Source of the DNA: Promethearchaeota archaeon
GTDB taxonomy: Archaea; Asgardarchaeota; Heimdallarchaeia; Hodarchaeales; Hodarchaeaceae
DNA: 32,000 bases
Direction of reading: 5' to 3'
NCBI GenBank assembly: GCA_048938105.1
Contig: JBHLMN010000005.1
Span: 207,036 to 239,035, forward strand
Made by a program: the position numbers and the translations under genes. The first letter of the stretch is position 1. The number at the start of each line of letters is the position of its first letter. A model generated the notes under the pieces. The model had not been told where the DNA came from, made no database searches, and saw only the letters and a program-made list of their open reading frames with translations. Positions 5,521-31,387 of the stretch are shown one piece after another.

Positions 5521-5536
5521 GGTTGCTTATGCAACC
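5521..5536. promoter_or_regulatory. Perfect palindrome GGTTGC-TTAT-GCAACC next to an A/T run, upstream of the regulator gene
   Basis: ...gaaaaaaaagcGGTTGCTTATGCAACCataa, about 115 nt upstream of the 5406 start codon (minus strand). Confidence 0.5.
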
Positions 5537-5914
5537 ATAATATAAGATTACTTAAAAGATTACATTCAAAAAAAGGTGAAACGTTAATTCATTCTGAGGT
5601 GCTGCTGGTTTTTTTAAGGTGAACATAATAAGAATTTGAGCTCTCTCTCCTCTCTTTAAGACTGGTTAGATATGAAAAAGGTATAAAAGTGGATTACTGA
5701 TAATGAAACAGTAAAACAGGACACATATACTATGAACCTTCGCTTTATTAACAAAGATAGGACGGACAGAATGAGAGAAATCTTCAGAATGAATTCTATA
5801 ATAGGTAATTCCAGAATCAAACTCTAGCAAATAACACACAAAATTATCATCACTTTCTCTTTTCTCTTACTTCTACGGAAATTTTTATAATGTCACGGAA
5901 TTCTTGGATTATTT

Positions 5915-7345
5915 ATGTTAAAATTGTCCATTTTAACCCAACAAGAACAAGATTCAATTCATACCGCTGCGTTAAAGGTATTAAAAACCGTTGGTTGTGA
6001 GATTCAAGACAAGAAATGGCTGAGTCTTTTAGCGAAAAATGGAGTAAAAGTCGATTATACAACTTCGAGGGTTTTTATAACTGATGAAGACATTGTTAAC
6101 TCCTCACTTGAATCTTGTGGTCACTCGATTAAATATGCAGCTAGAGATCCCCAAAAAGATTGGATTATAGGCCAAGGAGTGGCTAAAACCCATACACCAG
6201 AAGGTATAACTCATGTCATAGAATTGGAATCAAGATGTCACCGAGAAGCCCAATTATCTGATCTAGCAGATATTACAAAAATTTGTGACTTTCTTTCCAA
6301 TGTCGATGGTATAATTGATCCTGTTGTTCCTTATGATGTTCCTCCTGCTATACAAAGTGTCATAATAACAAAGACACTGATAGAAAATACAACAAAACCA
6401 ATTGATCCAGCAGGGATCGCTTTGAAGAAAGGATTTCCTTTTGTTATGCAGATGCTTACTACTCTCCTTGGAGATCGAGATATATCAGAATACAGCTTAG
6501 GTGTTGGTGTTACCGCTACAAGTCCATTATTATTTCCATTTGACCAATTAGATACCTATTGGCAAGGAATTGAGCTAGGATCATCCTGTGATGTAGGTTC
6601 GATGCCACAGGCAGGATCGACTGCTCCTGCCTCTCTAGCAGGAACATTAACGTTGTTTGTCGCTGAAATATTAATGGGACTCATTATGGGACAGATAAAA
6701 AAGCCTGGATTATCTCAATTTGTATTTGTACGACCGTGCCTTTCGAATCCACGTTTTGGGATATTTAATTCAGGTCCGCCCGAGGTTGGATTGCTCCAGG
6801 CGGCAGCCACTCAATTCTGTAAGGAAAAATACGGCCTTCTTGTTAATGCAGGTTGGGGTGTAAGTGATTCCCATTGTATTAGTCCCCAAGTAGCCTATGA
6901 AAAATGCTATATTTGGATGATGTCATTAGCTGCTGGTGCAGATATGATTTCGGGTGTTGGAGGCCTCGGTAGTGGGTTAATATCTTCTCCTGCACAAGTT
7001 GTTATTGATGATGAGATTATTGCTCACCTTAGACGAGGTGTTCAAGGAATTACCGTGGATGATTTCCATTTAGGCGTAGAGATGATTGAAGACACTGGTA
7101 TCGGGAACACATTTCTTTTTCATCCAAAAACAAGCCAGATTATTAGGGAAGAATGGCTATTATCTGAACTACCAAGTCGGAATTCTTTTAGTACTTGGCA
7201 AAATGCAGGTGCTCTAGATCTAATTAGTAGAGCAGAAAAGAAGGCAAAAGAAATTCTTGCGAATCATGAGGTAGAAGCATTGGATCCCAGTCTAGAAGAA
7301 GATCTTAACTGTATCCTTAAAGAAGCCAAAAGAACGTTACTATAG
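5915..7345 (+). CDS. MttB-superfamily (trimethylamine/betaine corrinoid methyltransferase-like) protein, no internal amber codon
   Basis: 476 aa; GWGVSDSHCISPQVAYEKCYIWMMSLAAGADMISGVGGLGSGLISSPAQVVIDDEIIAHLRR and VSHGIKYAARDP-like N-terminal region are characteristic; frame is uninterrupted. Confidence 0.88.
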   Translation: MLKLSILTQQEQDSIHTAALKVLKTVGCEIQDKKWLSLLAKNGVKVDYTTSRVFITDEDIVNSSLESCGHSIKYAARDPQKDWIIGQGVAKTHTPEGITHVIELESRCHREAQLSDLADITKICDFLSNVDGIIDPVVPYDVPPAIQSVIITKTLIENTTKPIDPAGIALKKGFPFVMQMLTTLLGDRDISEYSLGVGVTATSPLLFPFDQLDTYWQGIELGSSCDVGSMPQAGSTAPASLAGTLTLFVAEILMGLIMGQIKKPGLSQFVFVRPCLSNPRFGIFNSGPPEVGLLQAAATQFCKEKYGLLVNAGWGVSDSHCISPQVAYEKCYIWMMSLAAGADMISGVGGLGSGLISSPAQVVIDDEIIAHLRRGVQGITVDDFHLGVEMIEDTGIGNTFLFHPKTSQIIREEWLLSELPSRNSFSTWQNAGALDLISRAEKKAKEILANHEVEALDPSLEEDLNCILKEAKRTLL

Positions 7346-7743
7346 GAAAAGATACTGGACTCTAGAAATAAATTTTAAACCTTACATTAAGAAAATACTT
7401 GAAAAACCTAACTTTTCCTTAATCATTACTCTTTTAATAAAAAAACCATTTCTTAAACATGATTTGATTGGATGGACTACATAAACCAACTCTAGATGAA
7501 CACCACTTAATTCATCAAAAAGTGTCTGAATTCTTCTTATCATGATTAATTGACTTGAATCTTTAAGTATGCAAAAATTAATACTGTTGAAATTTTAGTA
7601 CTAAATTGAAATCAAGAATAGGAACATCAGGAATTATAAAACTCTATCTATCCTAGAATTATAGTTGATGTACTTATCTTCTAGCGAATACCATATGGTT
7701 AGCCTTATAAAGGAAGAAAGATTACATTGTAACTGAAAATATA

Positions 7744-7872
7744 ATGATTAAAAATTCGAATAAACCTCAGAATGAAGGAGATATCACAGATATTATAGAA
7801 GTACTAGAATTTCTAAATTATGACGGTACAATAAGCTTTCATGATATAGATTCCACTGTAGCAGTTCATTAA
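7744..7872 (+). CDS. Possible small ORF or gene remnant (42 aa)
   Basis: MIKNSNKPQNEGDITDIIEVLEFLNYDGTISFHDIDSTVAVH*; acidic, protein-like, but in a decayed-looking region. Confidence 0.25.
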   Translation: MIKNSNKPQNEGDITDIIEVLEFLNYDGTISFHDIDSTVAVH

Positions 7873-8156
7873 CATACAATATCATTTTTATAGTTAGGAA
7901 GGAGCATTTTTGCAGTTATTATCCCTACTGATTATGATTTTCAAATATAAATCTCTGGAAAATCCAATCTAGGCTTTCATAGCAGCTATACTCAATGTCA
8001 GAAAAAGCTGGATTATATTGTAATGGTAAATGGTGATACCAAAAGTATTAGGTAAATCTTCTTAAAATTACTCCAGAGGAAATTTAAGAAGCTCTTTGGA
8101 TTGGTTGTTCTCCTGATGTGAGAATTATCACATCATAAAGAGTTTAAATGCTGGAA

Positions 8157-9575
8157 TTAACCAGGGGGGATTAAAATTCTGACCTTTGATCCTTCATTCT
8201 TTGTAGCATCAATAAAAATATTCCCACCATGTTGATCAACAATACCTTTAGTTATTGTTAATCCTAAACCAAGGCCCCCTGCGCTATAACTTGTTACTCT
8301 AGAAATGAATGGGCTATAAACTTTGGAAATAATTTCAGAAGGTATTCCCTCTCCATGATCCTGAACAGTAATGTTTAATCCTTTTGTTTGCCATTTTATG
8401 ATTAGAACTACTGGCATGTCCCCAGGACTATGTTTACAAGCATTCTCTAAGAGATTAAAAATAGCTTGGGAAAGGCGATCGAAATCAAAAACTAGTGGAA
8501 AAGTGGATTTTAAGCTTGGATCAATACAAATATCTGGAACAATACGTGAAGAGTAGTTCCAAGTCTTTAGATCATCCAATAATGCAGTCTTAAATTCTTT
8601 AAAGGTCACTGGTCGCTTATTTACACTAAAGATTCCTTTTTCAATCTCAGAAAGAGTATATACATCAGTAATCAGTTTTTCCAAACGATGTACATTTCTG
8701 GTAAGAGTATTAAGTATCTTTTTTCCATAATCATCATTTTCTTTAGCTTTGTTTAATAAATAAGTACACCCTCTAATTACTGTTAGAGGGGTTCGGAGCT
8801 CGTGCGTCGTTACTTCAATAAAGCGATTTCGGAGTTTCTCTAGCAACATCTTCTCTGTTATATCGGAAAATACGGCAAGAACTCCCCAATGATTTCCGTG
8901 TGGGGTCTTCAATGATCCTAATGAGAGTATTACTTCCTTTAGAGTCGAATCTGCACAACGTACCCTGATATGGTGAGCAAATGACCCCATGTCTACATTT
9001 TCACTGATTTGAGTTTTTATGTCTTCTAAATCATCAGAGTAAATGAGGTCCAAAATATTATTTACTTTAATTTCATTTTTAAGTTCATAACCTAGCATTT
9101 TAGCAAGAAATTGATTTAGATAAAGAATATTTCCATTAGATTCTGCTATTATTACACCAGAGTTAATTGATTTTAAAAATTCACGATTTTGATTAGTAAC
9201 ATTTTCTAATACACTATGTAATTCAACAAATTCGCTAATATCTTGAATTATTCCATAGATATACTTATTTTCGAAAATACCAACTGTGAATTGAACAGGT
9301 ATAGTTTTACCATGATGAGATACCTCTAGCCTTATTGACTTTGGTTTGCTTTCATCTGAAATGGTCGAAGCGAGTAATTCTCCTTCCTGAACAAATATAC
9401 TGCCTATTTTTCTGCCACGAATCTCATCAAAATCAGACACTTGGTGGAGTTCATTAAATATATCATTAGCCCAAACTAATACTCTTGTGTCCAAATCCTG
9501 AACATAAATCGCATCTTTAGATTCTTTAAGTATTCTCTTGAAAATCTTATATTCTGTTAGAGATACTTGATTCAC
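8157..9575 (-). CDS. Soluble PAS-domain sensor histidine kinase
   Basis: Two PAS-like regions, HisKA box FIEVTTHELRTPLTVIRG, N box NLLENACKH, G boxes VQDHGEGIP and GGLGLGLTI; no TM segments. Confidence 0.93.
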   Translation of the reverse strand: MNQVSLTEYKIFKRILKESKDAIYVQDLDTRVLVWANDIFNELHQVSDFDEIRGRKIGSIFVQEGELLASTISDESKPKSIRLEVSHHGKTIPVQFTVGIFENKYIYGIIQDISEFVELHSVLENVTNQNREFLKSINSGVIIAESNGNILYLNQFLAKMLGYELKNEIKVNNILDLIYSDDLEDIKTQISENVDMGSFAHHIRVRCADSTLKEVILSLGSLKTPHGNHWGVLAVFSDITEKMLLEKLRNRFIEVTTHELRTPLTVIRGCTYLLNKAKENDDYGKKILNTLTRNVHRLEKLITDVYTLSEIEKGIFSVNKRPVTFKEFKTALLDDLKTWNYSSRIVPDICIDPSLKSTFPLVFDFDRLSQAIFNLLENACKHSPGDMPVVLIIKWQTKGLNITVQDHGEGIPSEIISKVYSPFISRVTSYSAGGLGLGLTITKGIVDQHGGNIFIDATKNEGSKVRILIPPG

Positions 9576-9788: not shown

Positions 9789-10358
9789 GTGGCAATAATT
9801 GCAAAAATCTGCTTATGTGGCGATGGGGAGGTAGGAAAAACGTCGTTACGTAATAGATATTTAGGCCGAGGCTTTCAGAGTGATTACTTGCCAACTCTTG
9901 GTTCAGATTTTGTATCAAGAAAGGTTATGATAAAAAGTAGTTCAGAATCTAAAGAGATTCGTTTTCAAATCTGGGATCTAGCCGGTCAACCAGCATTTAA
10001 TCAAATTAGGCCCCTTTATTTTAAGCAAGCTGTAGGTTCCCTACTTATATTTGATATTACTAGACCAAAAACATTATACAATTTAGAAAGATGGGTGGAT
10101 GAACTCAACCAGAATTCTGGTTGTACAAAAATGGCAATAATTGTACTTGGCAATAAATCGGATTTAAAGGATGGAAGTACAAATCAGGTTACAAGAGAAG
10201 AGGCAAAAAAGTTCATTAAAAACCAGTTAACAAATCAATCTTATAATTGCATTGATAATACAATACCTTTTTTCGAAACTTCAGCAAAAACAGGTGAAAA
10301 TGTTAATCAAGCATTCGAAGAACTAGGATTAAAAATATATTCAAATTTTTATTATTGA
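9789..10358 (+). CDS. Ras/Rab-superfamily small GTPase
   Basis: G1 GDGEVGKTS, G2-region T (YLPTLGSDF), G3 DLAGQ, G4 NKSD, G5 ETSAKTG. Confidence 0.95.
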   Translation: MAIIAKICLCGDGEVGKTSLRNRYLGRGFQSDYLPTLGSDFVSRKVMIKSSSESKEIRFQIWDLAGQPAFNQIRPLYFKQAVGSLLIFDITRPKTLYNLERWVDELNQNSGCTKMAIIVLGNKSDLKDGSTNQVTREEAKKFIKNQLTNQSYNCIDNTIPFFETSAKTGENVNQAFEELGLKIYSNFYY

Positions 10359-13451: not shown

Positions 13452-16232
13452 CTATTGCCATGAACTAATTCGATCCGCTTTTTCTACAAACCTTGCAGAT
13501 AAGCTCTTCGTACGAGCTTGTAGAAGAATTTGGCGGCCTTCCAGGGTTCGTGTATAAATAATCTCCATATTCCCGACATATTTAGCCCAATTTTTGCTAA
13601 ATTCTTGGGCATATTCCTTATTTGTTGCTAAGATAGTGGGAAGGCCTAAATAATCCTGTCGCCTGAAAATTCTAGCCCAGATGGACTTTCGTTTCAAGAG
13701 ATAACGGGGATTCTCAATCGGACTTAGGAGTTCCTCAAGCGCATCAAGAAAAACCGACTCCTCTCTTTTGGTACAATTTTGAATGTAACATCTAACTGCC
13801 CCCAAGTATGTCTCATCTTTTTCGGTTTTAATGATGATTTCTTTAAAGGATGTTTTGATTTTCCCAGTCTTGCACAGGGATAATAATAATGCAGTCGCAA
13901 CCTGCTTCATACTACCTTTCAAAGGACCATGTTTTAAAAAAAGCCATGTAGCTTTGAAAAAATAAGGTAAAAAGATCAAAAAACCGATAAAAAAGCCTAA
14001 TAGAAGGAGGAGTAAAAGAAAATCTAACTCTCCATAGAATCGTACATTACTCAATCCCCGAAGGTAGAGTGCAAGAAAGAATAAAGAGGTCATCATTCCC
14101 TGCCAAACAATAGCAGCTATAGTATTTGTAAAAACATAAAAACGGGGTAGACTCGCGGGGTGTGTTCTGACCCCATGCACAAGCTTATAGCCTTTATTTG
14201 ATTGTAAAGCTTTTTCCCAGTCTTCTACCATCTTGCTTCGATTAATAGCCATAGTCTTGGTCAATTGGTTATAATTTTTTAATTCCGTGGAGGTTATTGG
14301 AGGTTTTTTAATATTCAGACGTTCAAGTCCATTTGTAATGATAGGTTTATCAAAAGCAACCCCAAGAAAACCCTTGAATCGTCGTTTTAACATGTGAAAA
14401 TCACCTCCAATGGCATTTTGATCAGGAAGGAAACTAAGTCTAGCTTTCAACGAAGGTAAATCTAAACACACTAGATGCCAAATATTAGCAGTCTTCATTG
14501 GCTTGGTAGGATCAATTCTAATGGCTCTACCACGCATTTGATTACTAAGCATGTAAGAACCAACAAAAGAAGCTAGTACAAGAGAGTTGATTGAAGGTGC
14601 ATCCCACCCCTCTCCCAGGAGCGAAGTAGTTCCCACTAAGACATTCAACCCGCCTTCTGTGAATAATCGGGTGATCACTTCAACACGTTTCTTTTTATCT
14701 GCAGCCTTAAACCTTATTCGAAGATAATTGGGATCATGCTTCAATTCTGTAATTGTTATTCGATCCAAAGGGATTTTCTCATCCTCAATGATTTGGTTAA
14801 ATAAAAATTGACTTATTTGGGGAATGATTATAATTGATCCAGTCAACACTCCCAATTTTGGTTCATTCATTCCTCTTAAATCTGATTTTAGGAAATGTCG
14901 TATTTCTTCAAAGATAGGAATTACCCCTATCTTGTTAATCACTACCTCATCCTGGGGATTCTTGGGTAAATATTCTTTTCGAATATAATCTGTTAAAATG
15001 ACTTGTCGTAACGAATCCCTGAGATGGGTTGATTCTAAATCCACGATTTCAACTATAGACCTCAATTTCGATAGACTTTGTTTCAAAATGCGTTCTATCT
15101 CTTCAGCACCCTCTAAGTCTACTTTTCTTCGTTCAATCGCCCCCAAAGTTTTCAATTGATCGTGAATTTTAATTAAGAATGGGGGAAGATCATCTAAGGA
15201 CGAATAGGAATTAAATATCAGACCTGTGAATAAAATCTCCAACCACGCAAACGAGATTTTAGGTAAATCTTTTGGATCTGAATTTATAATTTGCAAAGTT
15301 TTCCTCGGAAGTACCACCCCAAGACAATTAAGATATACAAGCATACTGGAAAAAAAGGCTGGTTCTTCTAGGATAGATTCTATATGAATAGTTGGGTCTT
15401 CAATCCATGGGTGGGTGAGTAAAAAATCCTTAAGTGAATCATAGTGCTTAATACCTTCAATAAGATCCCAAACTCTGTTTCTAAAGCGCAATATTTCTGT
15501 TGATTCATCATCAGTTGGCGTGGAAAATAAAACATAATCTTGATGATAACAGAGATTCCTTTCTTTCACAAGCTCAGGAACACTGACTTCTGTGTCAACT
15601 GGACCGCATAATTGCGTATAACGTTCCCATTCTGTAGGTAGAACATCATACGGAGGTGTTGCAGTCAGCGCAACAATGGTGCTAGGGGCTAACTCCTGAA
15701 TTATTTTCCATAGGTTCATCCACCAGCTTCGTCGTAAATGATGGGCTTCATCGACGACTATAGTTCCGACGTTTTGATTTTTTAAGAGATTTATTACATT
15801 AATTTTCTGGGTTGATCGCTTTTGAGAATTTTTCTCCTCTATTTCCTCCTCTGGTTCTTCAATATCTTCATCAAGGCCACACATGGCGCTATAGAGACCT
15901 TGATATGTGGAGACGGTTAAAAATTTGGGTTCTTTAATTATATCAGATATCCAAGACGGTCTCTGTTGATTGGGAATAAAATTGGTAACAAATCGGTCGA
16001 CCCATTGATTTTTAATTGCGATAGTAGGTGCAAAAATAATAGTAGGTCTGTTGAGCCTTAAAATGACTTCTAAACCTAATATTGTCTTACCTGATCCTGG
16101 GGCTGCCACAATATGTAGCCGAGAATCATCTAAATATTCTTTCAACTCCTCTAAAATGCGCTTCTGATAAGGTCGCCAAGGATACAGAAATCTTAGATTT
16201 GGAGGAAATCGCTCCATAAGCCCTACATTCAT
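13452..16232 (-). CDS. Superfamily 2 DEAD/DEAH-type helicase with large inter-motif insertion and C-terminal membrane module
   Basis: YPWRPYQKRIL (Q-like), AAPGSGKT, VVDEAHH, ALTATPP, VGTTSLLGEGWDAPSIN, QMRGRAIR; C-terminal TM segments TIAAIVWQGMMTSLFFLALYL and FLLLLLLLGFFIGFLIFLPYF. Confidence 0.9.
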   Translation of the reverse strand: MNVGLMERFPPNLRFLYPWRPYQKRILEELKEYLDDSRLHIVAAPGSGKTILGLEVILRLNRPTIIFAPTIAIKNQWVDRFVTNFIPNQQRPSWISDIIKEPKFLTVSTYQGLYSAMCGLDEDIEEPEEEIEEKNSQKRSTQKINVINLLKNQNVGTIVVDEAHHLRRSWWMNLWKIIQELAPSTIVALTATPPYDVLPTEWERYTQLCGPVDTEVSVPELVKERNLCYHQDYVLFSTPTDDESTEILRFRNRVWDLIEGIKHYDSLKDFLLTHPWIEDPTIHIESILEEPAFFSSMLVYLNCLGVVLPRKTLQIINSDPKDLPKISFAWLEILFTGLIFNSYSSLDDLPPFLIKIHDQLKTLGAIERRKVDLEGAEEIERILKQSLSKLRSIVEIVDLESTHLRDSLRQVILTDYIRKEYLPKNPQDEVVINKIGVIPIFEEIRHFLKSDLRGMNEPKLGVLTGSIIIIPQISQFLFNQIIEDEKIPLDRITITELKHDPNYLRIRFKAADKKKRVEVITRLFTEGGLNVLVGTTSLLGEGWDAPSINSLVLASFVGSYMLSNQMRGRAIRIDPTKPMKTANIWHLVCLDLPSLKARLSFLPDQNAIGGDFHMLKRRFKGFLGVAFDKPIITNGLERLNIKKPPITSTELKNYNQLTKTMAINRSKMVEDWEKALQSNKGYKLVHGVRTHPASLPRFYVFTNTIAAIVWQGMMTSLFFLALYLRGLSNVRFYGELDFLLLLLLLGFFIGFLIFLPYFFKATWLFLKHGPLKGSMKQVATALLLSLCKTGKIKTSFKEIIIKTEKDETYLGAVRCYIQNCTKREESVFLDALEELLSPIENPRYLLKRKSIWARIFRRQDYLGLPTILATNKEYAQEFSKNWAKYVGNMEIIYTRTLEGRQILLQARTKSLSARFVEKADRISSWQ

Positions 16233-16623: not shown

Positions 16624-17349
16624 TCATTCTTTAATCTCAGCTCCACAGTGAGAACAGAACTTTTGTGCCCCTTGTACAATCGCTCCACATTTTGAACACA
16701 CAATTGTATCCGTACGAGGGAGAATAGAACTACCATTAGTTACAGTCGGAGGAACCGCTTTGTGAGAGGAAACAAATTGTGTTTTAGGGGAGATTCCAAT
16801 TGTATAAATGGACTCGGTTTGTTTTCGGTAACGGAAGTATAGAAATCCAATTATGCCAGCTCCTCCGAGGACAACAATAATCACCACTAAAGCATACCAA
16901 GGGAAAACTGGATTATCAATAGGTTTTTTTGTGAAAGTAACGTTATCAGATATTTCAATCCTAATATTGTCCCGTTCGGTTTTAGAGTCAATTGTATATT
17001 TTGTTTTAGTCGTTTGGGAGAGCGTTTTTGAGTCCTCTGGCTGCATATCACCAAAGAAAAAGTCTACTGTCTTAGTCAATTCCTCAATTCCTTGGTAGGT
17101 CTCATAAAGTTCAATGTAAATCTTGATGTCTTCGTAATAATAGGAAGATTCAATGCAGCGGCATTCAACAGTTAAGGTTATATCCCAACGTTCACCATAA
17201 TGACCCTCTCCTTTAGCATTGCACGTTATATCAAAGTAGTATTTATATCCTTGAAAAGGTGAGCCTAAAACACTAACAGAAGAAAAGATAGTTATTATTA
17301 TGAATAAAACTAACTGAAAACTATTTTTTCTCATTTTAACCCTCTTCAA
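16624..17349 (-). CDS. Membrane protein: signal peptide, extracellular domain, single TM and C-terminal zinc ribbon
   Basis: MKRVKMRKNSFQLVLFIIITIFSSVSVLG; TM WYALVVIIVVLGGAGIIGFLYF; C-terminal CSKCGAIVQGAQKFCSHCGAEI. Confidence 0.8.
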   Translation of the reverse strand: MKRVKMRKNSFQLVLFIIITIFSSVSVLGSPFQGYKYYFDITCNAKGEGHYGERWDITLTVECRCIESSYYYEDIKIYIELYETYQGIEELTKTVDFFFGDMQPEDSKTLSQTTKTKYTIDSKTERDNIRIEISDNVTFTKKPIDNPVFPWYALVVIIVVLGGAGIIGFLYFRYRKQTESIYTIGISPKTQFVSSHKAVPPTVTNGSSILPRTDTIVCSKCGAIVQGAQKFCSHCGAEIKE

Positions 17350-17655
17350 AACACAAATTGAATGAATTCTATAAATAACAACTGCTTAAAATCATGTACT
17401 ATATATTTTAAGCTGTGTTAAGCCAATCCCCGTTCTCTCTAACTTTTTAGAAAGACATTAGCTCTGCTGTTTATAGGAATGAAATTAGTTCCAGAAGACA
17501 CTGTTATTCTGCTGCTTCTGATACTTATTCCCACTTTTATATATTTGGATAAGAACATATTCGCTATTCGTCGTTTATTCAATGAATAAAAGTATCTTAC
17601 TTGATGTAATAGTCTTAATTTCCTTTAGGAAGAGAAAAGAATAATAACGATGTTC

Positions 17656-20600
17656 TCACATCTCTTCCTTCTTTTTTTGAAAATTGTGCTTAACCATAAG
17701 AAAAATCATTTCTCCCTGCAAAGAATCATTATCAATGGATATATTAGAATTTAACCATGATCCATCCCATAATTCAATCGAAACATTTTCTCCAGCAGAA
17801 ACCACCCCATTAATCGTTATACTATAAACTGGTTCATCTTGAGGTATACCAACTGCTTGATGTTCCCATTGTAAATGAAAATCATCAACCAAAAAAACAT
17901 TCTCTTCTGAACCATACAATATCTCTACTGCATTATTTACATCTAATGAAGAAGATAATGATGTTGCAGTCGAATTGCCATAATAAAGATAAATTACTTG
18001 ATTAGATGTAGATAAATCACCATCCAGCTCCACCCAGAACCGAGCATGTTTCCCAATAGTGCCATTAAGGAATCCTTTTGATCCCCATGCATACAGTTTC
18101 ACAAAATCAAAGTCTGATCCTGCAATATGCCACTCTGTATTATAAATTATAAGTTCCTGATCATATCCACCACGAGGAATAAGGCCATAATGCCACCCTT
18201 TTCCAGACACATAATCAAAAATCGTTTCTTCTAAGGTCCATATTTTACCATTCCAAGAATACTGAGCAAAATCTCTAGTTGGAGCTCCAATATATGCTGT
18301 AATATTAGTAGAATCATGAACAACAAAATCAATAGTAGGACTATTTCTATAAAATCCCTGATTCACTTCCTCTACAGCCGACCAAGATGAAGAAGTCTCA
18401 TTCCAATAACGAAACATAACCTTCTCTTGTCTTCCATCTATTATCCCCCACATAATATACGGATTTGAATTACTATCTACATGCACTGTTTCAGAAGCAC
18501 ATGGATCTGTTTCAGAATCATACACCCAGCATGAATACTGCTCAGTATTATTAATCATCGTTCCCATATCGTAATCAGAAGCATTAAACAGATGTCCTGA
18601 TGTTACATTTAAATAAGCATAAAAAATACTTTCATATTGAACAGATCGTGTGATATTATACCGTTTCCATACAAGATGAAGAATCTCTGGATTATTAGGA
18701 TCTAATTCACCCTGTTCTTGGTAAGGTCTTTCTGCATTTGCACCACCGTTTAGGTTCAAATCAATAATTGTTTGGCTATTACTCCACGTATATCCTCCAT
18801 CGGTGGAATTGCAATAAGCTATCACCAATCCTACACCTCCATAAATTTCACGATAATGTAAATGGACCACATCATTAGTAGAATCGTAAAAAAGATGTGC
18901 ATATGTTTGATCAGGACTCCCATCGTCTGATGTTCCCCATACGCCTGTCATATTCCCCTCATTCACATGAGTCCAACTTTGAATAGATTCAGGTGTTTGA
19001 GAAACATAGTGTTGAAAGTAGTCATTGTGGGAACCAGCAAACACATGAATATACCCATCATTAGTTACATAAACAGCAGGAGACCCATGACCATCAGTAT
19101 AACCAAGAACATTTTCACTAATATAAACCACATCTCCCCATGTGTCATTTTCATGGTCATAATAAGTAATATGTATATTCATATAATGTTGATTACTTGA
19201 TTGATCCAAGTCTCCCTGAAATACAAGATATGTTCGATTATTATAATAGTAAGCTGCTGGATAATTATAAGGATAATGTCCATGAAAAACAGAACTGTTA
19301 GTAAAATAGCGATAAGAACTATCTTCCTCATACGTCCTTTCAAGCCAATAATTAGGCAATGTCTTACCCTGATCATCAGTAAAACGAATATCATCAAAAT
19401 CCACTTGACACTTTCCATCAGTAAAAACGCGAATTCCATGATCTAAAGATGACTGAAAATAATCTCCATAGTAGACATCAAGAGGAATAACATAATTTTG
19501 ACCTGTTGAAACATCACGAGGTATAAATAACAATTTTCGATAATCCCACCCCTTTAACCATGATACTTTCTCAATATAAGTCACATTCACAAACGCATGA
19601 TGAGAATTCACATGTTCATACGCCTCCAATTGATTGTCAGTAGCAAGAGAATAAGATAGATACCGATCTAACGAAAATTGCACTCCAAAATAATTACCTG
19701 ACGACCAATCGGCTAAATTGACCTGATCTTGAAGCATATCGGTAATATCTGTTGTAATCCATTCCCCCGCATTCTTATTGAATGTATGATGAGCTATATT
19801 AGTATCTACAACCTCTGGAATTACTGAATCCCTCTCAAGAGGCCCAACATTACTCTCATTGATTCTTCGGATAGTAGCATCATATTCAATAAACTCTTGA
19901 ATTTCCCAAACAGTCACTGTGGCATATTGTATTGTTGAATATTGTGGAATAGCAAGACTCCAACGAAAATTTGAATACGCTCGCCCACGTTTGTCATCGT
20001 AACACAATCTTCCAATAGTTTCTTCCGTATGATGAGTCCATCCAGACTTGTATTGCCAATAATCATCATCCATCCCAGCTGCAATTGGAACGACAAGATT
20101 CCTAGATAACTCCTCCTGATAACTAATATTTACATACGCATGATGAGAATCTGGATGTGAATAATCTTCAAAACTATTACTAGCAGTTATTTCTGAAACC
20201 ATTATAAACCGAACTCCAAAATAATATTCTGACTGCCACCCAGCAAGATTTACCTGATCTTGCATCATTGCAGTAATATCAACAACCCTCCACTCATTTC
20301 CAGTTTTGTCCCATTCATAATCAACAGAATTTTGAGAAGTCACTACAGGCATTACGGTATCTGCCTCTAAAGAACCAACATTGGTTTCGTCAATACGCTC
20401 TACTATCGTATTACCAGTTGTACCATCCACAATTTCCCATAGTGTTAAAGTAGCTGATAATATAGTAACTCCCTGATTTAGATTAATCTGAAACCGCATC
20501 TGCCCAAAATTCGTTGCTATAGCTGAAAGATCCCCTACTCGTACTTCATCTGACGTAGTATAATGTGTATAAGCTCCCGCTTCCTCCTGATTTCCAAAAT

Positions 20601-21918
20601 CCATAAATGTAGAGGGATCATTTTGATTATTCCATTCTGTCAAAATCCAATCCGATGTCCGATCTGTACCAATAACTCTCATCTCATCTAAAGTACCATG
20701 CATGTCATTCTTTGGCCCACCCGTTACCCCAGCTAATCGAAGCTCTTCAGCCGTATTTTTCATGGCAATATAACTTCCACTCATCCGCCTAAAACTGGAA
20801 TTATCTTGACCATTTAGAAATACACTAAGACCTTCCTCTGTTGAATCACCGTTGTATACCCAATGAATTAAGTACCAATTTCCCACTTCCAAAGAATCAG
20901 AGCTATAAACACGTATATATGAAGAAGGAGAATCATGACCATAACATACAAGATATAATCTGCCATTAGACGAAAGGGTAGTGAAATATTCACGATTTGA
21001 AAAAGTTTTAGAAAAAATAATCTGCTCACGGTTTATCTCACTTGGTTTATACCATACACTTAAGGTAAAAGGAAAATCCTTTATTCCATTTCCAAATGAA
21101 AAGTCATCATGATCAGGAAGTTCAATGAACTTATCACTTCCATCGACATACTTTCCTCCTGCGATGTGTCCATCCGCATTCAGGGCACCATAATTCGTTC
21201 CATTATGATGATTTGTTGTGGAATCATCAAAATTGTATTCATTTAAATGCCATACCGCATGGTACTCATTATCCCAAACATTTTCCAAATCTTGTTGACT
21301 AGAAATAGTATTATTCCCATAATACATCAAAATTGTAGTATCACTACTTGTGGATAAAGATGGTATCCGAACCCATGCAGTTAATTCTCCATTTGTACCA
21401 TTATAGAATTCAATTTCATGATCTAACTGCGTTGTACCCTGATAAAACGCAATGTCATCTCCATCATCCTGTGCATAATCAGCTAAATCGGAATCAATAG
21501 TATTTATAAGAATAGTAAAATTTGTGTGACTGCCAGAACCACTAATATCATCAGAATCAAGTGTTATTTTTTTTCGATAATTCCACGTGTTAAAATATAA
21601 TCCTCCTGATATAAAGTTCCACATATCATCATCCGAATCATCCATTATCTCGGAAGATATTGTATGTTCTCCCACAAAAAACGGATTTTTCTCCGTAATA
21701 TTTTGAAATCCCCCATCTGACGATTCAGTATCACTATGATCGCCTGAACTTGAACTAGAATTCTCTGTACTGTCCGAAATAAATACTTTTGTATCTTTTA
21801 CATCTTCCATTGAACTAAGACTGTATAATATTAGCATACATACCAAAAAAACAGAAATTAAAACCAGCTTTTTTCTCCTATTACTCATTATCAACTCACT
21901 TTTTCTTCTCATTTTCAA
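17656..21918 (-). CDS. Giant surface protein: DUF2341, LamG, two tandem similar domains, second DUF2341 interrupted by a BNR-type beta-propeller
   Basis: WNYRKKITLDSDDISG...TILMYYGNNT (DUF2341); WHLNEYNFDDSTTNHHNGTNYG...ELPDHDDFSFG...MHGTLDEMRV (LamG); GWDYRKLLF...VIYLYYGNST (DUF2341); HGSPAVYVTNDGYIHVFAGSHND, HLHYREIYGG (BNR_4-like). The track start is TTG; MSNRRKKLVLISVFLVCMLILYSL at 21885 is a likelier start. Confidence 0.85.
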   Translation of the reverse strand: MKMRRKSELIMSNRRKKLVLISVFLVCMLILYSLSSMEDVKDTKVFISDSTENSSSSSGDHSDTESSDGGFQNITEKNPFFVGEHTISSEIMDDSDDDMWNFISGGLYFNTWNYRKKITLDSDDISGSGSHTNFTILINTIDSDLADYAQDDGDDIAFYQGTTQLDHEIEFYNGTNGELTAWVRIPSLSTSSDTTILMYYGNNTISSQQDLENVWDNEYHAVWHLNEYNFDDSTTNHHNGTNYGALNADGHIAGGKYVDGSDKFIELPDHDDFSFGNGIKDFPFTLSVWYKPSEINREQIIFSKTFSNREYFTTLSSNGRLYLVCYGHDSPSSYIRVYSSDSLEVGNWYLIHWVYNGDSTEEGLSVFLNGQDNSSFRRMSGSYIAMKNTAEELRLAGVTGGPKNDMHGTLDEMRVIGTDRTSDWILTEWNNQNDPSTFMDFGNQEEAGAYTHYTTSDEVRVGDLSAIATNFGQMRFQINLNQGVTILSATLTLWEIVDGTTGNTIVERIDETNVGSLEADTVMPVVTSQNSVDYEWDKTGNEWRVVDITAMMQDQVNLAGWQSEYYFGVRFIMVSEITASNSFEDYSHPDSHHAYVNISYQEELSRNLVVPIAAGMDDDYWQYKSGWTHHTEETIGRLCYDDKRGRAYSNFRWSLAIPQYSTIQYATVTVWEIQEFIEYDATIRRINESNVGPLERDSVIPEVVDTNIAHHTFNKNAGEWITTDITDMLQDQVNLADWSSGNYFGVQFSLDRYLSYSLATDNQLEAYEHVNSHHAFVNVTYIEKVSWLKGWDYRKLLFIPRDVSTGQNYVIPLDVYYGDYFQSSLDHGIRVFTDGKCQVDFDDIRFTDDQGKTLPNYWLERTYEEDSSYRYFTNSSVFHGHYPYNYPAAYYYNNRTYLVFQGDLDQSSNQHYMNIHITYYDHENDTWGDVVYISENVLGYTDGHGSPAVYVTNDGYIHVFAGSHNDYFQHYVSQTPESIQSWTHVNEGNMTGVWGTSDDGSPDQTYAHLFYDSTNDVVHLHYREIYGGVGLVIAYCNSTDGGYTWSNSQTIIDLNLNGGANAERPYQEQGELDPNNPEILHLVWKRYNITRSVQYESIFYAYLNVTSGHLFNASDYDMGTMINNTEQYSCWVYDSETDPCASETVHVDSNSNPYIMWGIIDGRQEKVMFRYWNETSSSWSAVEEVNQGFYRNSPTIDFVVHDSTNITAYIGAPTRDFAQYSWNGKIWTLEETIFDYVSGKGWHYGLIPRGGYDQELIIYNTEWHIAGSDFDFVKLYAWGSKGFLNGTIGKHARFWVELDGDLSTSNQVIYLYYGNSTATSLSSSLDVNNAVEILYGSEENVFLVDDFHLQWEHQAVGIPQDEPVYSITINGVVSAGENVSIELWDGSWLNSNISIDNDSLQGEMIFLMVKHNFQKKKEEM

Positions 21919-22044
21919 TTAAAGGTTTTTCTTTGACAACTTCGTAAAAGGTTGGATTAATACCATTCTCTTTTCTAGTAATTCAGGATTCTTATTCCTA
22001 TTTAGAATAAAACGACCTTTCCTTTTTTTTATATACGAATTCAT
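21919..22044 (-). CDS. Small basic ORF (41 aa) containing VLIQPFTKL; possible gene remnant
   Basis: MNSYIKKRKGRFILNRNKNPELLEKRMVLIQPFTKLSKKNL*; carries copy B of the dispersed motif. Confidence 0.3.
   Translation of the reverse strand: MNSYIKKRKGRFILNRNKNPELLEKRMVLIQPFTKLSKKNL
21936..21963 (+). repeat. Dispersed 28-nt motif, copy B
   Basis: ACAACTTCGTAAAAGGTTGGATTAATAC; 24/28 identical to 29442-29469. Confidence 0.45.
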
Positions 22045-25563: not shown

Positions 25564-26778
25564 ATGAATAAAGAAGGGTTAATGGTGGAGAAAACTGAAT
25601 CAAATTCTTTTGAGATTTTTCCTTACAGGTGGATTGTGTTAGTACTTTTTATGTTTGTTGGGATTCTTACCCAAATTATCTGGATAACCTTCGCACCAAT
25701 AATGAATGAAGTAACTAGTTATTATAATGTAACTAGTGACGCTATTTTGTTACTAGCTGCTAGCTTTATGATTCTCTATATTCCAGTGAATTTCCCTGCT
25801 TGTTGGTTAATAGATAAATACGGTTTAAAATGGGGAACTGGGATAGGTGTCATACTCACAGGTATTTTTGGCTTTCTAAGAGCATTTACAGGGACTAATT
25901 TTCTCTTTCTTTTATTTTGCCAGATAATGGTAGCTATTGGTCAACCTTTCGTTTTGAATTCATTTACAAAAGTTGCTGTCAACTGGTTCCCCGAGGAAGA
26001 GAAGGCTACTGCGACTGGTTTAGGAACTATGGCATTATTTATCGGGATAATAATTACGATGATTGCTACTTACCCCCTTTATGCGTTAAATGGTATAGAA
26101 TTTGTATTACTCGTCTATGGATTGTTGGCCTTGATTTCAATGATACTATATCTGTTATTTGTGAAAGATAAACCCTCACAACCACCCAATCCATATTTTC
26201 GGGAAAAAACGTTCCAAACTAAAGGAATGAAGAATTTATTCAAAAATAGAGATTTCAACTTACTCATCTTTCTATTTTTTGCTGGTTTAGGAATATTCAA
26301 CGCTTTATTGAGTGCTATTGATGATATTTTCATTAGGTTCTCTCCTGATACTGGGATAATTGGGGGATTGATCATATTGGGTGGAATTTTTGGTGCAGTT
26401 ATCCTTTCTTCTCTATCAGATAAATTCGGTAAGCGTAAAATCTTTTTGAATGTTGCTTTGATTGTAAGTACACCTTTAGTACTTCTCCTAGGGTTTACTG
26501 GTTCTGAGGATTTTATATTAACAGTAATATTAGCTTTTATCTTTGGTTTCATATTAGTACCGGCATTACCCGTTGGATTAACGTATGCAGCTGAAATAAC
26601 CCATCCTGTACCAGAAGAAAGCTCCAATGGTGTGTTAATGATGTTTGGTCAGTTAGGAGGGATAATATTCCTAATTATACCAGAAATGATTCTATTTGCA
26701 GCTGTCTTTGGAATAGCAGCCATTTTGAGCCTTTTAATGAAAGATTCAGATGCCTATCAGGTGAAAAATGACCAATAA
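25564..26778 (+). CDS. Major facilitator superfamily transporter
   Basis: About 12 TM segments; NWFPEEEKATATGLGTMALFIG and LSDKFGKRKIFL motifs. Confidence 0.9.
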   Translation: MNKEGLMVEKTESNSFEIFPYRWIVLVLFMFVGILTQIIWITFAPIMNEVTSYYNVTSDAILLLAASFMILYIPVNFPACWLIDKYGLKWGTGIGVILTGIFGFLRAFTGTNFLFLLFCQIMVAIGQPFVLNSFTKVAVNWFPEEEKATATGLGTMALFIGIIITMIATYPLYALNGIEFVLLVYGLLALISMILYLLFVKDKPSQPPNPYFREKTFQTKGMKNLFKNRDFNLLIFLFFAGLGIFNALLSAIDDIFIRFSPDTGIIGGLIILGGIFGAVILSSLSDKFGKRKIFLNVALIVSTPLVLLLGFTGSEDFILTVILAFIFGFILVPALPVGLTYAAEITHPVPEESSNGVLMMFGQLGGIIFLIIPEMILFAAVFGIAAILSLLMKDSDAYQVKNDQ

Positions 26779-27073
26779 CTTGTTTTAACCTAATCCATTT
26801 CTGAATACTCGGATATGTGTTTGATAGCCAAATCCCTATAATAATGGTTAAAATGAGAATAAAATGATTTAAATGGCGATTATTGAAGAAACAAAACAAC
26901 TGGAAAAGATAATTTCTAATACTAGTTATTTAATCGTTTTCTTATAAAAAAATATATAATTAAGAATATATCTCATCTCAAATAACCTTTTAGAATCAAT
27001 ATACTCAACCAATCCTAGATGAGATTAAAAAAGAAATACATTAACAAGCATTCATCTTTTCTCCGTTAAATTA

Positions 27074-28300
27074 GTGATAACTTATGGGGCTGCCTTCGTG
27101 AGTTCTAAAAGAGTCAAATCTCGCTCTAATGAAATCTTAACCTTAGCTTATACTTTTAAAACTTATACAAAACGATTTAAGCGATCCTTCTACATGATTC
27201 TTGACCGAAAGAATCCTATACAGCTAAAACAATTCCCAGATGAATTTCTCAATGCATTTAATAATGTAAAAACCCCTGGAGTTGCGTTAAAACATTATTA
27301 TAAGTTAATTTTACTGTTATTCTTAGCTAGAAATGACTTCACCGATTTAAGTAAAAATGAAATCGATGTAATTTTCACGGAGGTTGGAGTTGAATTATCA
27401 ATAGATGTGTGGAAGAAATTAACAGGGCACCTAAGCAATAATTCTGACAATCTTATATACAAAATGAGGTTGGGGAAAGACACCAGATTATTATTTTCCT
27501 CTAATAAAGATTTAATTAAGATAATGGAGAGATTAATTTCAAATTCTCAATCTAGTGAACCTCCTCACGACTATTCATTAGCAATATTTAGTAAAACGGC
27601 TCCTAAGGATAAGAATAACGTTGATTATTGCTTAGATTTTTCTAACTATTTCAAAACAGGGATGCCTTCAGAGGATCAATGGTTAAGCATTGAGGATGAA
27701 ATAACGACAGCAATTGAAAATATCTATGAAACTCATTTTGACACAACCCTTCTATTAAAAGAATGTAAGCCTCATACTTCTCTTGCTTTCATTCTAGGCC
27801 ATTCGGTTAATTATTTTGAAAGTCTAAAGTTATTTATTTATCAGAACGGTCAATATTGGGAATACGAAAAGATAAATGAGAATATTTATGCCTCTAATCA
27901 CTGGACTCTTTCTACTAAATACAGAAAACCTGTAAATGAAGATGAAATAAACGTCATGATAAGTGTTAGTGACCCAATTATACGATATGTTGAAAAATAC
28001 CTTCAAAAAGATAAAGAAAAGACAAAATTCACAATTCACTTTTCAATCAAACCAGAACCACAAGTAAACAGTATTACTGATCAAAATGATGCGTTGAAGA
28101 AAATTGATGCTATTTACACATACCTTACACGGCTTAAAGCAAAAATCCCTTATATAAAGATTCACCTATTCTTATGGGCTCCTGTAGCTTTCATAGTATT
28201 ACTTGGAATGAGACTTGCCTCGGTAGCCCGGGTTCAATTATATGAGTTTGACCAAAAAGCAGGAAATTTTGTGCCTAGCATTTTACTAGATCGATATTAA
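27074..28300 (+). CDS. SAVED-domain protein with uncharacterised (possibly winged-helix) N-terminal region
   Basis: LDFSNYFKTGMPSEDQWLSIEDEI...HTSLAFILGHSVNYFESLKLFIYQNGQYWEY and YIKIHLFLWAPVAFIVLLGMRLASVARVQLYEFDQKAGNFVPSILLD match the two-half SAVED pattern. Alternative GTG start at 27098. Confidence 0.75.
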   Translation: MITYGAAFVSSKRVKSRSNEILTLAYTFKTYTKRFKRSFYMILDRKNPIQLKQFPDEFLNAFNNVKTPGVALKHYYKLILLLFLARNDFTDLSKNEIDVIFTEVGVELSIDVWKKLTGHLSNNSDNLIYKMRLGKDTRLLFSSNKDLIKIMERLISNSQSSEPPHDYSLAIFSKTAPKDKNNVDYCLDFSNYFKTGMPSEDQWLSIEDEITTAIENIYETHFDTTLLLKECKPHTSLAFILGHSVNYFESLKLFIYQNGQYWEYEKINENIYASNHWTLSTKYRKPVNEDEINVMISVSDPIIRYVEKYLQKDKEKTKFTIHFSIKPEPQVNSITDQNDALKKIDAIYTYLTRLKAKIPYIKIHLFLWAPVAFIVLLGMRLASVARVQLYEFDQKAGNFVPSILLDRY

Positions 28301-28611
28301 CCTTTATTTTTCAACAAATGCCATTAAAACACCGTTTGAATTCCTAAAGATGGTTAAATCTAATTTCTTGTATTTTTCGCACAATGTCGCACTTTCATGA
28401 ACTTGAAAGAATTAGCTTATTTTCTCTTGAAAAGTAATTTAATAAGTTTATTTTCCATTTAAGTTACTAATTTAATTTATTTTATAGTCTTAAAGTTGCA
28501 CTTATTTGCACTGCTTGTTTAAAACCATAAAATTTAAATACAATTCCGAAAAAGAATATCCTTGACCATAAATCAATGGTCAATATAAGTTTGACTACAA
28601 AGGTGAAAAGC

Positions 28612-28674
28612 ATGACAGAAAAAGAGAAGAAACCAAAAACTAAAAAACCCCGAGCTAAGAAAACAAAGAAATAA
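28612..28674 (+). CDS. Lysine/proline-rich micro-ORF (20 aa)
   Basis: MTEKEKKPKTKKPRAKKTKK*; preceded by AAAGGTGAAAAGC. Confidence 0.35.
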   Translation: MTEKEKKPKTKKPRAKKTKK

Positions 28675-28720
28675 CTTGATAAAATCTTAGTAAAACAACT
28701 AATAGAAAAAGGTGAAAGAT

Positions 28721-28843
28721 ATGAAGAAAGCTCCAAAGAGGAAAGTTCCTCAGAAGAAACCAATCTATGAAGAAGAGGAAGAAGAGGAAGAAGAGGACTG
28801 GGAAGACGAAGACGACGAAGATTGGGATGATGAGGATAATTAA
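28721..28843 (+). CDS. Charged micro-ORF, basic N-terminus and Asp/Glu/Trp tail (40 aa)
   Basis: MKKAPKRKVPQKKPIYEEEEEEEEEDWEDEDDEDWDDEDN*; preceded by AAAAAGGTGAAAGAT. Confidence 0.5.
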   Translation: MKKAPKRKVPQKKPIYEEEEEEEEEDWEDEDDEDWDDEDN

Positions 28844-28872
28844 CCTTTTACATTAAAATAGAATATAATACT

Positions 28873-28906
28873 AGGTGATTTTCCCTCTAATAAAGGGAAA
28901 TCACCT
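28873..28906. terminator. Strong hairpin between convergent ORFs
   Basis: AGGTGATTTTCCCT...AGGGAAATCACCT, about 13-bp stem with one bulge, 30 nt after the 28843 stop codon. Confidence 0.5.
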
Positions 28907-28913
28907 TTAATTC

Positions 28914-29033
28914 TCAAATAAAAGTTTTTTCAAGTCCCTCAATTATTTTTATAATATCATACTCTTTTTCTGGTAAGATCGAAGACATTATCTCTCCTAA
29001 TATCTCATCAAGACAATTAGAATTTATATTCAC
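28914..29033 (-). CDS. Possible small helical ORF (39 aa, GTG start)
   Basis: MNINSNCLDEILGEIMSSILPEKEYDIIKIIEGLEKTFI*. Confidence 0.3.
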   Translation of the reverse strand: MNINSNCLDEILGEIMSSILPEKEYDIIKIIEGLEKTFI

Positions 29034-29085
29034 ATTCAATCGCTATTGATAGTCCTATTTTCTATCGTTATTAATTCATTTTGAA

Positions 29086-29292
29086 TTAGATTGGTGGTTT
29101 TGAATCTTTTCGAGACTCAGTTGCGGGTTTTCCCTCAATACCCCAATGAGCTTTAGGGATTTCGTGAATAATGACTTCAACGGCATGAGAGGGAATTCCA
29201 ATTTTTACGAAGACATTCGTAATACCTTCAATTATTTCCTTAATTCTCTCTTCAGAGAATCCTTTCCAAATATGGACATGGATAATAGGCAC
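29086..29292 (-). CDS. 4-oxalocrotonate tautomerase family protein
   Basis: MPIIHVHIWKGFSEERIKEIIEGITNVFVKIGIPSHAVEVIIHEIPKAHWGIEGKPA; catalytic Pro after Met. Confidence 0.9.
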   Translation of the reverse strand: MPIIHVHIWKGFSEERIKEIIEGITNVFVKIGIPSHAVEVIIHEIPKAHWGIEGKPATESRKDSKPPI

Positions 29293-29441
29293 ATTACATC
29301 ACCTCATCAAATTTGTTATTCGTTATTGATCTAAGATTCTTTTGTTTTTGCTTTATCTTTTTTGATTTCAATAATATTTAAGACTTTAGACCTTATCAGG
29401 AACAAAGAGACAAACAATGATTGAAAAATTATTTTTATTTG

Positions 29442-30997: not shown

Positions 30998-31387
30998 TTA
31001 GCTGCCAACATAAGCAACAACATCAATTTGGATTAATATCCGATCATCTAAAAAATCAGTAATGAAAGTTGTTCGTACGGGAAAATCAGTTTTAAATTGG
31101 TTCCTGTAGATGCTAACCATCTTTCTGAAATCTTCTTTGTTCTTTATTAGAACTGTCGTTTTGATAACATCATCGAGAGATGCATCCGCATGAGCAAGAG
31201 ACTTTTTTAATTCTTTGAATGTATATTCTGTCTGGGATTCAATATCTGTAAGTAATTTCCCTTCTTCATCTACTATTGCACCATGATAACTCGTATAAAT
31301 GAAATTCCCTGCCTTAACATATGTACAATGGGTGAATCCAGTTTCTGGGTGTAAATTAACAAATTTTACTTCTCCTTTATCCGTCAT
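30998..31387 (-). CDS. RidA (YjgF/YER057c/UK114) family protein
   Basis: AGNFIYTSYHGAIVDEEGKLLTDIESQTEYTFKELKKSLAHADASLDDVIKTTVLIKNKEDF...FPVRTTF. Confidence 0.88.
   Translation of the reverse strand: MTDKGEVKFVNLHPETGFTHCTYVKAGNFIYTSYHGAIVDEEGKLLTDIESQTEYTFKELKKSLAHADASLDDVIKTTVLIKNKEDFRKMVSIYRNQFKTDFPVRTTFITDFLDDRILIQIDVVAYVGS

Follow-up and report, generated by a model that had tools for sequence, protein, structure and literature searches.

What is the role of a SAVED-domain protein whose gene has no cyclase or cas gene beside it? This question is raised by an open reading frame (ORF) at 27074..28300 on the plus strand of a 32,000-nt stretch of DNA from a Promethearchaeota archaeon (contig JBHLMN010000005.1, positions 207,036 to 239,035; the whole stretch is called the window below). 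The ORF encodes 408 aa when it is counted from the GTG at 27074. The initial annotation described its product as an orphan SAVED-domain protein with an unclassified N-terminal region, and offered a second-messenger-responsive regulator or a novel effector as its role. The ORF exists, and both peptide stretches quoted in that annotation lie within it. The regulator turned out to be the best reading, though not a proven one, given a SAVED domain, a winged helix-turn-helix (wHTH) model for the N-terminus, and no cyclase or cas gene nearby. We speculated that the protein is a messenger-responsive transcription factor controlling an adjacent micro-operon, a proposal that we consider about evenly poised between right and wrong. 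The gene and its two parts are as follows.

27098..28300, plus strand: gene of the SAVED protein with a wHTH-like N-terminus, 400 aa, favoured GTG start
27098..27547, plus strand: N-terminal domain, residues 1-150, isoelectric point (pI) 9.9, modelled with AlphaFold2 (AF2)
27524..28291, plus strand: SAVED domain, residues 143-398 of the 400-aa protein, matched in NCBIfam, Pfam, PDB sequences, and Foldseek

The GTG at 27098 is the most likely start of the gene, since the residues upstream of the internal methionine are conserved and most homologues are 400 aa long; a start at 27074 is less likely. The 32 residues preceding that methionine showed protein-level conservation in all homologues, most of which had been called at 400 aa. 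Many of the 400-aa forms open with MSSKR at the position equivalent to 27098, and the homologue P0005 has an ATG there. In the DNA alignment, a GTG or TTG start was kept together with a GGGG, GGTG, or GAGG stretch approximately 10 nt upstream. Residue numbers given for the N-terminal domain are counted from the GTG at 27098 (400-aa form), and those given for the Pfam and NCBIfam matches are counted in the 408-aa ORF. The region upstream of the gene (26779-27097) has its own conserved A/T-rich, TATA-like block with the consensus ACAAAAAAATATATAATT, approximately 140 nt ahead of the start codon, and two related loci, L007 and L001, have additional conserved blocks in common with the window there.

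The C-terminal 255 aa or so are a bona fide SAVED domain, and family membership is solid by both profile and fold. Pfam PF18145 matched residues 232-403 at E=7.1e-22 (78.5 bits against a cut-off of 26.2), and NCBIfam NF033611 matched residues 151-406 over profile positions 5-260 of 261 at E=5.5e-29 (101.5 bits against a cut-off of 33). The SAVED claim of the initial annotation, for which a profile search against PF18145 had been proposed, was thus borne out well above the cut-offs in both databases. The PADLOC models of Cap4-type nuclease-SAVED, TIR-SAVED, and Lon-SAVED proteins matched in their SAVED parts only. When the family profile was compared with PDB sequences, Cap4 was found at 4e-11 (6vm5) and 6e-10 (6vm6), again in the SAVED part only. 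The full-length AF2 model was poor, with a predicted local distance difference test (pLDDT) score of 52 overall and 55-73 in the SAVED part. Foldseek with this model retrieved solved SAVED proteins, as the structure-prediction check suggested earlier had asked of it: Cap4, Cap5, SAVED-CHAT, and a viral SAVED ring nuclease, at E-values of about 1e-10 to 1e-7 over approximately 207-230 columns. Across the family the SAVED domain is strongly conserved, and its pI is 6.0.

The N-terminus was more difficult to place. A non-SAVED N-terminal region is present, as had been annotated, but it measures approximately 142-150 aa after correction of the start, not the 165 aa or so first given. It had no significant match in Pfam, NCBIfam, PADLOC, or PDB sequences. 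The annotated lack of a nuclease, TIR, Lon, or transmembrane signature held in Pfam, NCBIfam, and PADLOC, where a patatin match was absent as well, and profile and structure searches did not resolve the region to any known nuclease, protease, or other effector. The isolated domain was modelled by AF2 from 14 sequences with a pLDDT of 90 and a predicted TM-score of 0.86, and the five models were concordant. The model starts with a long, basic helix of 33 residues (3-35), which is followed by helix 48-57, helix 64-77, a short strand, helix 86-95, a putative recognition helix (102-109), a beta-hairpin wing (120-125/128-133), and helix 137-147. A stretch that the initial annotation thought capable of forming a winged helix was therefore modelled as a wHTH at high confidence, with weak structural neighbours.

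The order of the elements in the model (helix-helix-helix-recognition helix-hairpin-helix) is that of ArsR/SmtB proteins, and the domain is accordingly described here as wHTH-like. It differs from ArsR/SmtB proteins in an extra basic helix of 35 residues, in the fusion to SAVED instead of a metal- or sulfide-sensing site, and in the absence of a hidden Markov model match. The best Foldseek neighbours of the model were ArsR/SmtB wHTH proteins, STIV F93, and the Cdt1 winged helix (E 0.15-0.7). The ArsR/SmtB neighbours were SqrR (6o8k), HlyU (4k2e), CzrA (1r1u), and PagR (2zkz), with target-normalised TM-scores of 0.5-0.6 and identities of 12-19%. The putative recognition helix keeps W105-K106-K107-x-T109 without exception, even among members with an overall identity of 41%. 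In the wing, G126 is invariant, and K122 and R130 are kept in at least 90% of the sequences. Nucleic-acid binding by this module is supported by these conserved recognition-helix and wing residues and by its pI of 9.9, compared with 6.0 for the SAVED part. A reading of E..D..K in the N-terminus as a PD-(D/E)xK nuclease was dropped, the model being helical with a hairpin wing.

The family is small. A word-indexed search of 5.8e9 proteins gave 14 members with 64-90% identity, and a profile search of 5.8e9 proteins returned the same 15 proteins and nothing further. An exhaustive HMMER search of 1.84e9 representatives with the N-terminal profile alone found three clusters (50% identity), all of about 400 aa and all with SAVED; two of them (P0015 and P0016) were 41% identical to the window protein. 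All named sources were Asgard metagenome-assembled genomes, which their submitters had labelled Hodarchaeales, Hodarchaeota, Heimdall-, Hermod-, Thor-, or Promethearchaeota. In the databases searched, the N-terminal domain is thus confined to the SAVED architecture, and the family is restricted to Asgard archaea.

The neighbourhoods of nine further members were compared, up to 10 kb on each side. In the window, no CD-NTase/SMODS, Cas10, or other cas gene was found by Pfam (all ORFs of at least 90 aa) or by PADLOC (unannotated ORFs), so that the annotated absence of a CD-NTase or cas gene holds at this level. Among the called genes of the nine loci there was likewise no cyclase, cas, or other defence gene. 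The ordinary neighbours differed in every locus and included hydrolases, a metallophosphatase, NosD-like proteins, a histone, ABC transporters, MarR, and an epimerase. The long "intergenic" stretch directly 3' of the SAVED gene, however, was conserved wherever the sequence suffices. The word "orphan" was therefore correct, at the local level, as regards cyclase and cas genes, but it missed a conserved downstream micro-ORF operon with GCAC-N6-GCAC boxes; the same comparison had been recommended in the initial annotation, and it gave no signalling or cas neighbour but did give this cassette. The cassette follows the SAVED gene in the window and in L024/L022, L001, L004, L005, L007, L019, and L015, and the boxes follow the gene in L008. 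Its features in the window are listed below.

28379..28402, plus strand: box 1, GCACAATGTCGCACTTTCATGAAC, that is GCAC-N6-GCAC-N6-GAAC, direct repeats in three copies, phased every 10 bp; candidate distal operator or upstream activating site
28498..28511, plus strand: box 2, GCACTTATTTGCAC, that is GCAC-N6-GCAC, 119 bp after box 1 and 22 bp before the TATA box; candidate proximal operator
28533..28540, plus strand: TATA-like element, TTTAAATA, with the conserved block ATAAAATTTAAATA in alignment A3
28562..28583, plus strand: inverted repeat, TTGACCAT-N6-ATGGTCAA, probable hairpin located at the 5' end of the micro-ORF mRNA or close to it
28599-28606, plus strand: Shine-Dalgarno sequence 1, AAAGGTGA, before micro-ORF 1
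28612..28674, plus strand: micro-ORF 1, MTEKEKKPKTKKPRAKKTKK, a 20-aa polylysine peptide, pI 10.6
28721..28843, plus strand: micro-ORF 2, MKKAPKRKVPQKKPIYEEEEEEEEEDWEDEDDEDWDDEDN, 40 aa, pI 4.05, basic and then acidic, Trp-containing, with the Shine-Dalgarno sequence AAGGTGA before it
28873..28906, plus strand: G+C-rich hairpin, AGGTGATTTTCCCT-N6-AGGGAAATCACCT, with a T-run within approximately 20 nt after it; position and stem conserved in alignment A3

The motif GCAC-N6-GCAC occurred twice in the 32-kb window, compared with 0.05 occurrences expected. In the fetched loci (approximately 165 kb of non-redundant sequence), it was found in the cassettes only, always paired and at the same place. 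The spacing between the boxes was 119 bp in most loci, 118 bp in L008, and 109 bp in L015, with the helical phase kept. By the established archaeal consensus, TTTAAATA looks like the TATA box of the micro-ORF operon. The hairpin at 28873-28906 is likely to be the 3' end of the micro-operon. A search of Rfam over 26700-29400 gave no match.

The inverted repeat begins 49-53 nt before the ATG in nine of the ten cassettes. In L005 its stem differs by a pair of compensatory double substitutions (TTGGCT/AGCCAA), in L022 it contains a G.U wobble, and in L015 an unrelated stem of the same size (GATTGTC/GACAATC) stands at its place. Since the changes are compensatory, a G.U pair is tolerated, and a different stem can occupy the fixed place, the inverted repeat is probably an RNA hairpin, situated at the transcript's 5' end or close to it, rather than a DNA operator. 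As an operator it was judged less likely than the boxes, its stem sequence drifting while the recognition helix of the protein stays invariant.

The evidence for selection differs between the two micro-ORFs. Micro-ORF 2 was conserved in all cassettes, and gene prediction had picked it up in L007 and L024 and, in a variant form, in L016. In its PKKPIYEEEEE block, the variable columns by codon position were 0/1/9, and the codon differences were 102 synonymous and 14 non-synonymous; by this codon pattern it is certainly coding and under purifying selection. Micro-ORF 1 was intact in all cassettes, with an invariant Shine-Dalgarno sequence and with frame and length kept. Its core K(T/S)KKPR was maintained through synonymous changes, and the overall count was 117 synonymous versus 161 non-synonymous, so the sign of selection is weaker than that on micro-ORF 2. 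Neither peptide had a Pfam match. A protein search with the acidic-peptide profile found only another copy of the cassette. Homology of the acidic microprotein to DSS1/Sem1 was considered and rejected: there was no Pfam match, and hhalign against a manually entered sequence gave a probability of 0.7%.

A second complete cassette is present in L001-L003 (19669-20135, minus strand; equivalent to L013 7684-7912), with its own box pair, Lys-rich ORF, and acidic ORF. It lies approximately 8 kb from the SAVED gene and adjoins a fragment of an ABC ATPase gene, with no second SAVED gene nearby. Since this copy has its own boxes, the boxes belong to the cassette promoter. In the cassettes with long enough upstream sequence, a SAVED gene ends there, the second copy in L001-3 being the sole exception. 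Scans for the acidic-peptide motif in GTDB species genomes and JGI metagenomes gave cassettes of this kind and a few chance bacterial matches; no cassette was found there in unrelated organisms.

A cytoplasmic, ligand-controlled transcription factor together with its target is the reading that we favour, because a sensor and a winged helix are combined in one protein, a conserved promoter is adjacent to its gene, and no other neighbour is conserved. In this scheme, the SAVED domain would sense a nucleotide second messenger whose source is encoded elsewhere in the genome; this messenger could be a cyclic oligo- or dinucleotide, possibly a housekeeping compound such as cyclic di-AMP (c-di-AMP). 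The N-terminal long basic helix and ArsR-like wHTH would bind DNA, and the most likely target would be the promoter directly downstream, with its two GCAC boxes 119 bp apart. Ligand binding would alter the oligomerisation of the protein in a head-to-tail manner, and tandem winged helices would match direct repeats that lie along a single face of the DNA. The bicistronic micro-operon would then be switched, on or off, by ligand-dependent assembly on the boxes.

SAVED proteins are known to stack head-to-tail on ligand binding, as in Cap4, TIR-SAVED, and SAVED-CHAT, and Cap4-type SAVED domains bind cyclic tri- or dinucleotides. A SAVED filament structure (8tl0) was among the Foldseek matches. Head-to-tail stacking fits the proposed sites, because the boxes are direct repeats with a 10-bp period and not palindromes. 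We infer that the boxes, rather than the inverted repeat, are the operator of the protein, because the invariance of GCAC parallels that of the recognition helix while the hairpin drifts. With box 2 located 22 bp before the TATA box and box 1 119 bp further away, the arrangement resembles that of archaeal upstream activating or repressing sites. A bolder version can be formulated as a self-contained, cyclase-independent circuit specific to the Heimdall/Hod group, in which an orphan SAVED-winged-helix factor reads a housekeeping or stress messenger, assembles head-to-tail on the phased GCAC repeats when ligand is bound, and switches on two oppositely charged microproteins of a so far undescribed kind; we hold this version to be rather doubtful.

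Several points weigh against the transcription-factor proposal. As to the signal, no messenger-producing enzyme was found in the window or within 10 kb on either side in the nine loci. As to the N-terminal domain, the Foldseek E-values were not significant (at least 0.15), the model depends on a shallow alignment of 14 similar sequences, no helix-turn-helix family was found in Pfam at E-values up to 10 for the N-terminal fragments of 14 members, and hhalign of the N-terminus against two local wHTH proteins gave probabilities below 1%. As to the DNA, the GCAC-N6-GCAC box was not found upstream of the SAVED gene itself, and the boxes could be bound by another transcription factor. The most divergent member, L016, keeps only half-boxes (by eye, the first GCAC of each, 119 bp apart), and its downstream region (1760-2301) has a different small ORF, MPKRKMAEKAARRIQSHADRTNTNQGFKARARSAADRNKK, encoding a basic peptide of 40 aa with no Pfam match. 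Finally, the cassette peptides had no match to a known function in Pfam or profile searches. The L016 peptide is, by eye, reminiscent of hydrophilin or late-embryogenesis-abundant-type stress peptides.

The first alternative is that the protein is an effector of defence by CBASS (cyclic oligonucleotide-based antiphage signalling) or type III CRISPR. A distant cyclase or Cas10 would trigger filamentation, the winged helices would coat DNA non-specifically and shut down the cell or the virus, and the cassette would be incidental. The SAVED part is indeed closest to the Cap4 and TIR-SAVED effector models, and SAVED effectors work through ligand-induced oligomerisation, a property to which the match with filament 8tl0 also points. 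CBASS, moreover, occurs in Asgard archaea (PMC11291487). However, neither the window nor the regions within 10 kb of the gene in the nine loci contain a cyclase, cas, or defence gene, and the identity of 64-90% among genomes of a narrow group is unlike the patchy occurrence of defence genes. The strict linkage to a promoter with conserved boxes would also be left unexplained. The adjacent CD-NTase and the fused killing domain that characterise effectors of CBASS operons are both lacking here, and the association with cas10 or CRISPR-cas that characterises type III CRISPR ancillary proteins is seen neither in the window nor in the related loci. We therefore regard a defence effector as unlikely.

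Cap4 (a CD-NTase-associated endonuclease, DUF4297 nuclease plus SAVED; 6vm5, 6vm6, 7yib) is the closest SAVED relative in sequence and fold, with PADLOC Cap4-type models matching at 1e-28 and Foldseek at 1e-10, and the pseudo-dimeric pocket for a cyclic oligonucleotide is presumably the same. In contrast to Cap4, the protein has no nuclease domain (the Cap4 equivalog NF051438 gave 26.6 bits against a cut-off of 160), its N-terminus is winged-helix-like, no CD-NTase is adjacent, and the family is restricted to Asgard archaea.

The second alternative, to which we assign a similarly low probability, accepts a transcription factor but gives it another target. The boxes would be bound by a different factor, and the adjacency would reflect shared history or co-mobility of a small module. 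The second cassette without an adjacent SAVED gene, the lack of boxes upstream of the SAVED gene, and locus L016, in which the gene is kept with a different small ORF and degraded boxes, all speak for it. Nevertheless, the two are adjacent in every distinct context with readable downstream sequence, down to 41% identity and after other synteny has been lost, and a regulator acting in trans accounts equally well for the second cassette. A third possibility, that SAVED is a ring nuclease or sponge for cyclic oligoadenylates, or a binder of something other than a nucleotide, with the N-terminal domain as a protein or RNA adaptor, is very unlikely: SAVED ring nucleases do exist, one being the viral 9r8s among the fold matches and another the SAVED domain of CalpL (PMC11417357), and protein contacts can be made through a winged helix, for instance that of Cdt1, but the basic, conserved recognition helix and wing and the linked DNA boxes favour DNA binding.

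If the protein is a ligand-controlled transcription factor, its nearest functional parallel would be Csa3. In both, a cyclic-oligonucleotide sensor of the CARF/SAVED superfamily is fused to a wHTH, in our case a predicted one. The sensor here is SAVED, a fused pseudo-dimer, and not CARF; the wHTH is N-terminal here and C-terminal in Csa3. The candidate site consists of phased direct repeats and not of a palindrome, the candidate target is a micro-ORF operon, and there is no CRISPR-cas context. No sequence similarity to Csa3 was detected in Pfam. The protein may thus work like Csa3 but is not a member of its family; it would be a SAVED-based counterpart in a small Asgard group. The DNA site of Csa3a lies 12 bp upstream of BRE/TATA (BRE, B recognition element; PMC8699464), and box 2 here ends 22 bp upstream of TATA. 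Csa3 has been listed in reviews as the only characterised non-enzymatic CARF/SAVED effector (PMC9704534).

A sensor without a local cyclase has a precedent. A standalone archaeal TIR-SAVED protein has been reported to respond to host c-di-AMP without a cognate cyclase (bioRxiv 10.1101/2025.06.19.660554). It sets an example for the reading of a housekeeping messenger by an orphan SAVED protein, and it is a plausible model for a SAVED protein that is an orphan locally. Its TIR output is NAD+ depletion, whereas the output module here is a putative DNA-binding domain.

Were the bolder version correct, no SAVED-based transcription factor would have preceded this one, and microprotein expression would be tied to this sensor family for the first time. 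A SAVED-winged-helix factor with a defined candidate operator and a very small target operon would also bring gene regulation into the scope of cyclic-oligonucleotide signalling, in those archaea whose lineage is closest to eukaryotes. To our knowledge, every SAVED protein characterised so far is either an enzyme or a pore and acts by killing the cell or arresting it, and Csa3, which uses CARF, is the only characterised sensor-to-transcription fusion of the superfamily. In the full-text literature, no paper combining "SAVED domain" with Asgard and no paper on a SAVED-HTH-type protein was found; the 2020 CARF/SAVED census, which may mention such a fusion, was outside the coverage. It would provide a simple system for testing, for which a single protein, the 24-bp DNA box, and a set of cyclic nucleotides suffice. 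With no cyclase linked, one would also have to ask what enzyme produces the signal. In addition, two conserved microproteins that are largely unannotated have come into view.

Some features of the individual neighbourhoods were also recorded. In L005, a 920-aa protein with NTP_transf_2 and calcineurin-like phosphoesterase domains (5204-7966, minus strand) is encoded 4 kb from the SAVED gene, and it could make or degrade a nucleotide signal. In L004, a double metallophosphatase (7857-9488, minus strand) is the divergent neighbour of the SAVED gene. A metallophosphatase as a conserved partner was rejected, as those of L004 and L005 are mutually unrelated and the other loci have none. An archaeal histone gene, CBFD_NFYB_HMF (L015 1454-1684, plus strand), immediately precedes the SAVED gene in this locus alone; the highly charged micro-ORF peptides could be chromatin-related. 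A HEPN_RiboL-PSP protein (L015 5761-6402, plus strand) is encoded 2.4 kb downstream of the SAVED gene, and a RidA/L-PSP gene (30998-31387, minus strand) lies 2.7 kb downstream of it in the window. This placement is probably a coincidence and does not recur in the other loci.

The window itself, which comes from an Asgard archaeon, has a G+C content of 0.32, and among its genes are those of a Ras-family GTPase, an HTH_10 regulator, and an MttB homologue. The small GTPase (9789-10358, plus strand; Pfam Ras E=9e-42) is of the Ras/Roc/Arf type, an Asgard eukaryotic signature protein, and similar GTPases are present in L005 and L024. A 926-aa ResIII/DEAD helicase (13452-16232, minus strand), for which PADLOC gave weak matches only (PbeA, type I REase, DinG-like), adjoins the gene of a 241-aa zinc-ribbon protein (16624-17349, minus strand); the pair lies 11 kb from the SAVED gene, with no evidence of a link. 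The MttB-family (trimethylamine methyltransferase-like) gene (5915-7345, plus strand) coincides with a local G+C peak of 0.40, compared with approximately 0.32. A 1420-aa protein with DUF2341, LamG-like, and BNR_4 domains is encoded at 17656-21918 on the minus strand, and the GC skew of the region 17000-22000 is strongly negative (-0.16 to -0.28), unlike that of the rest of the window.

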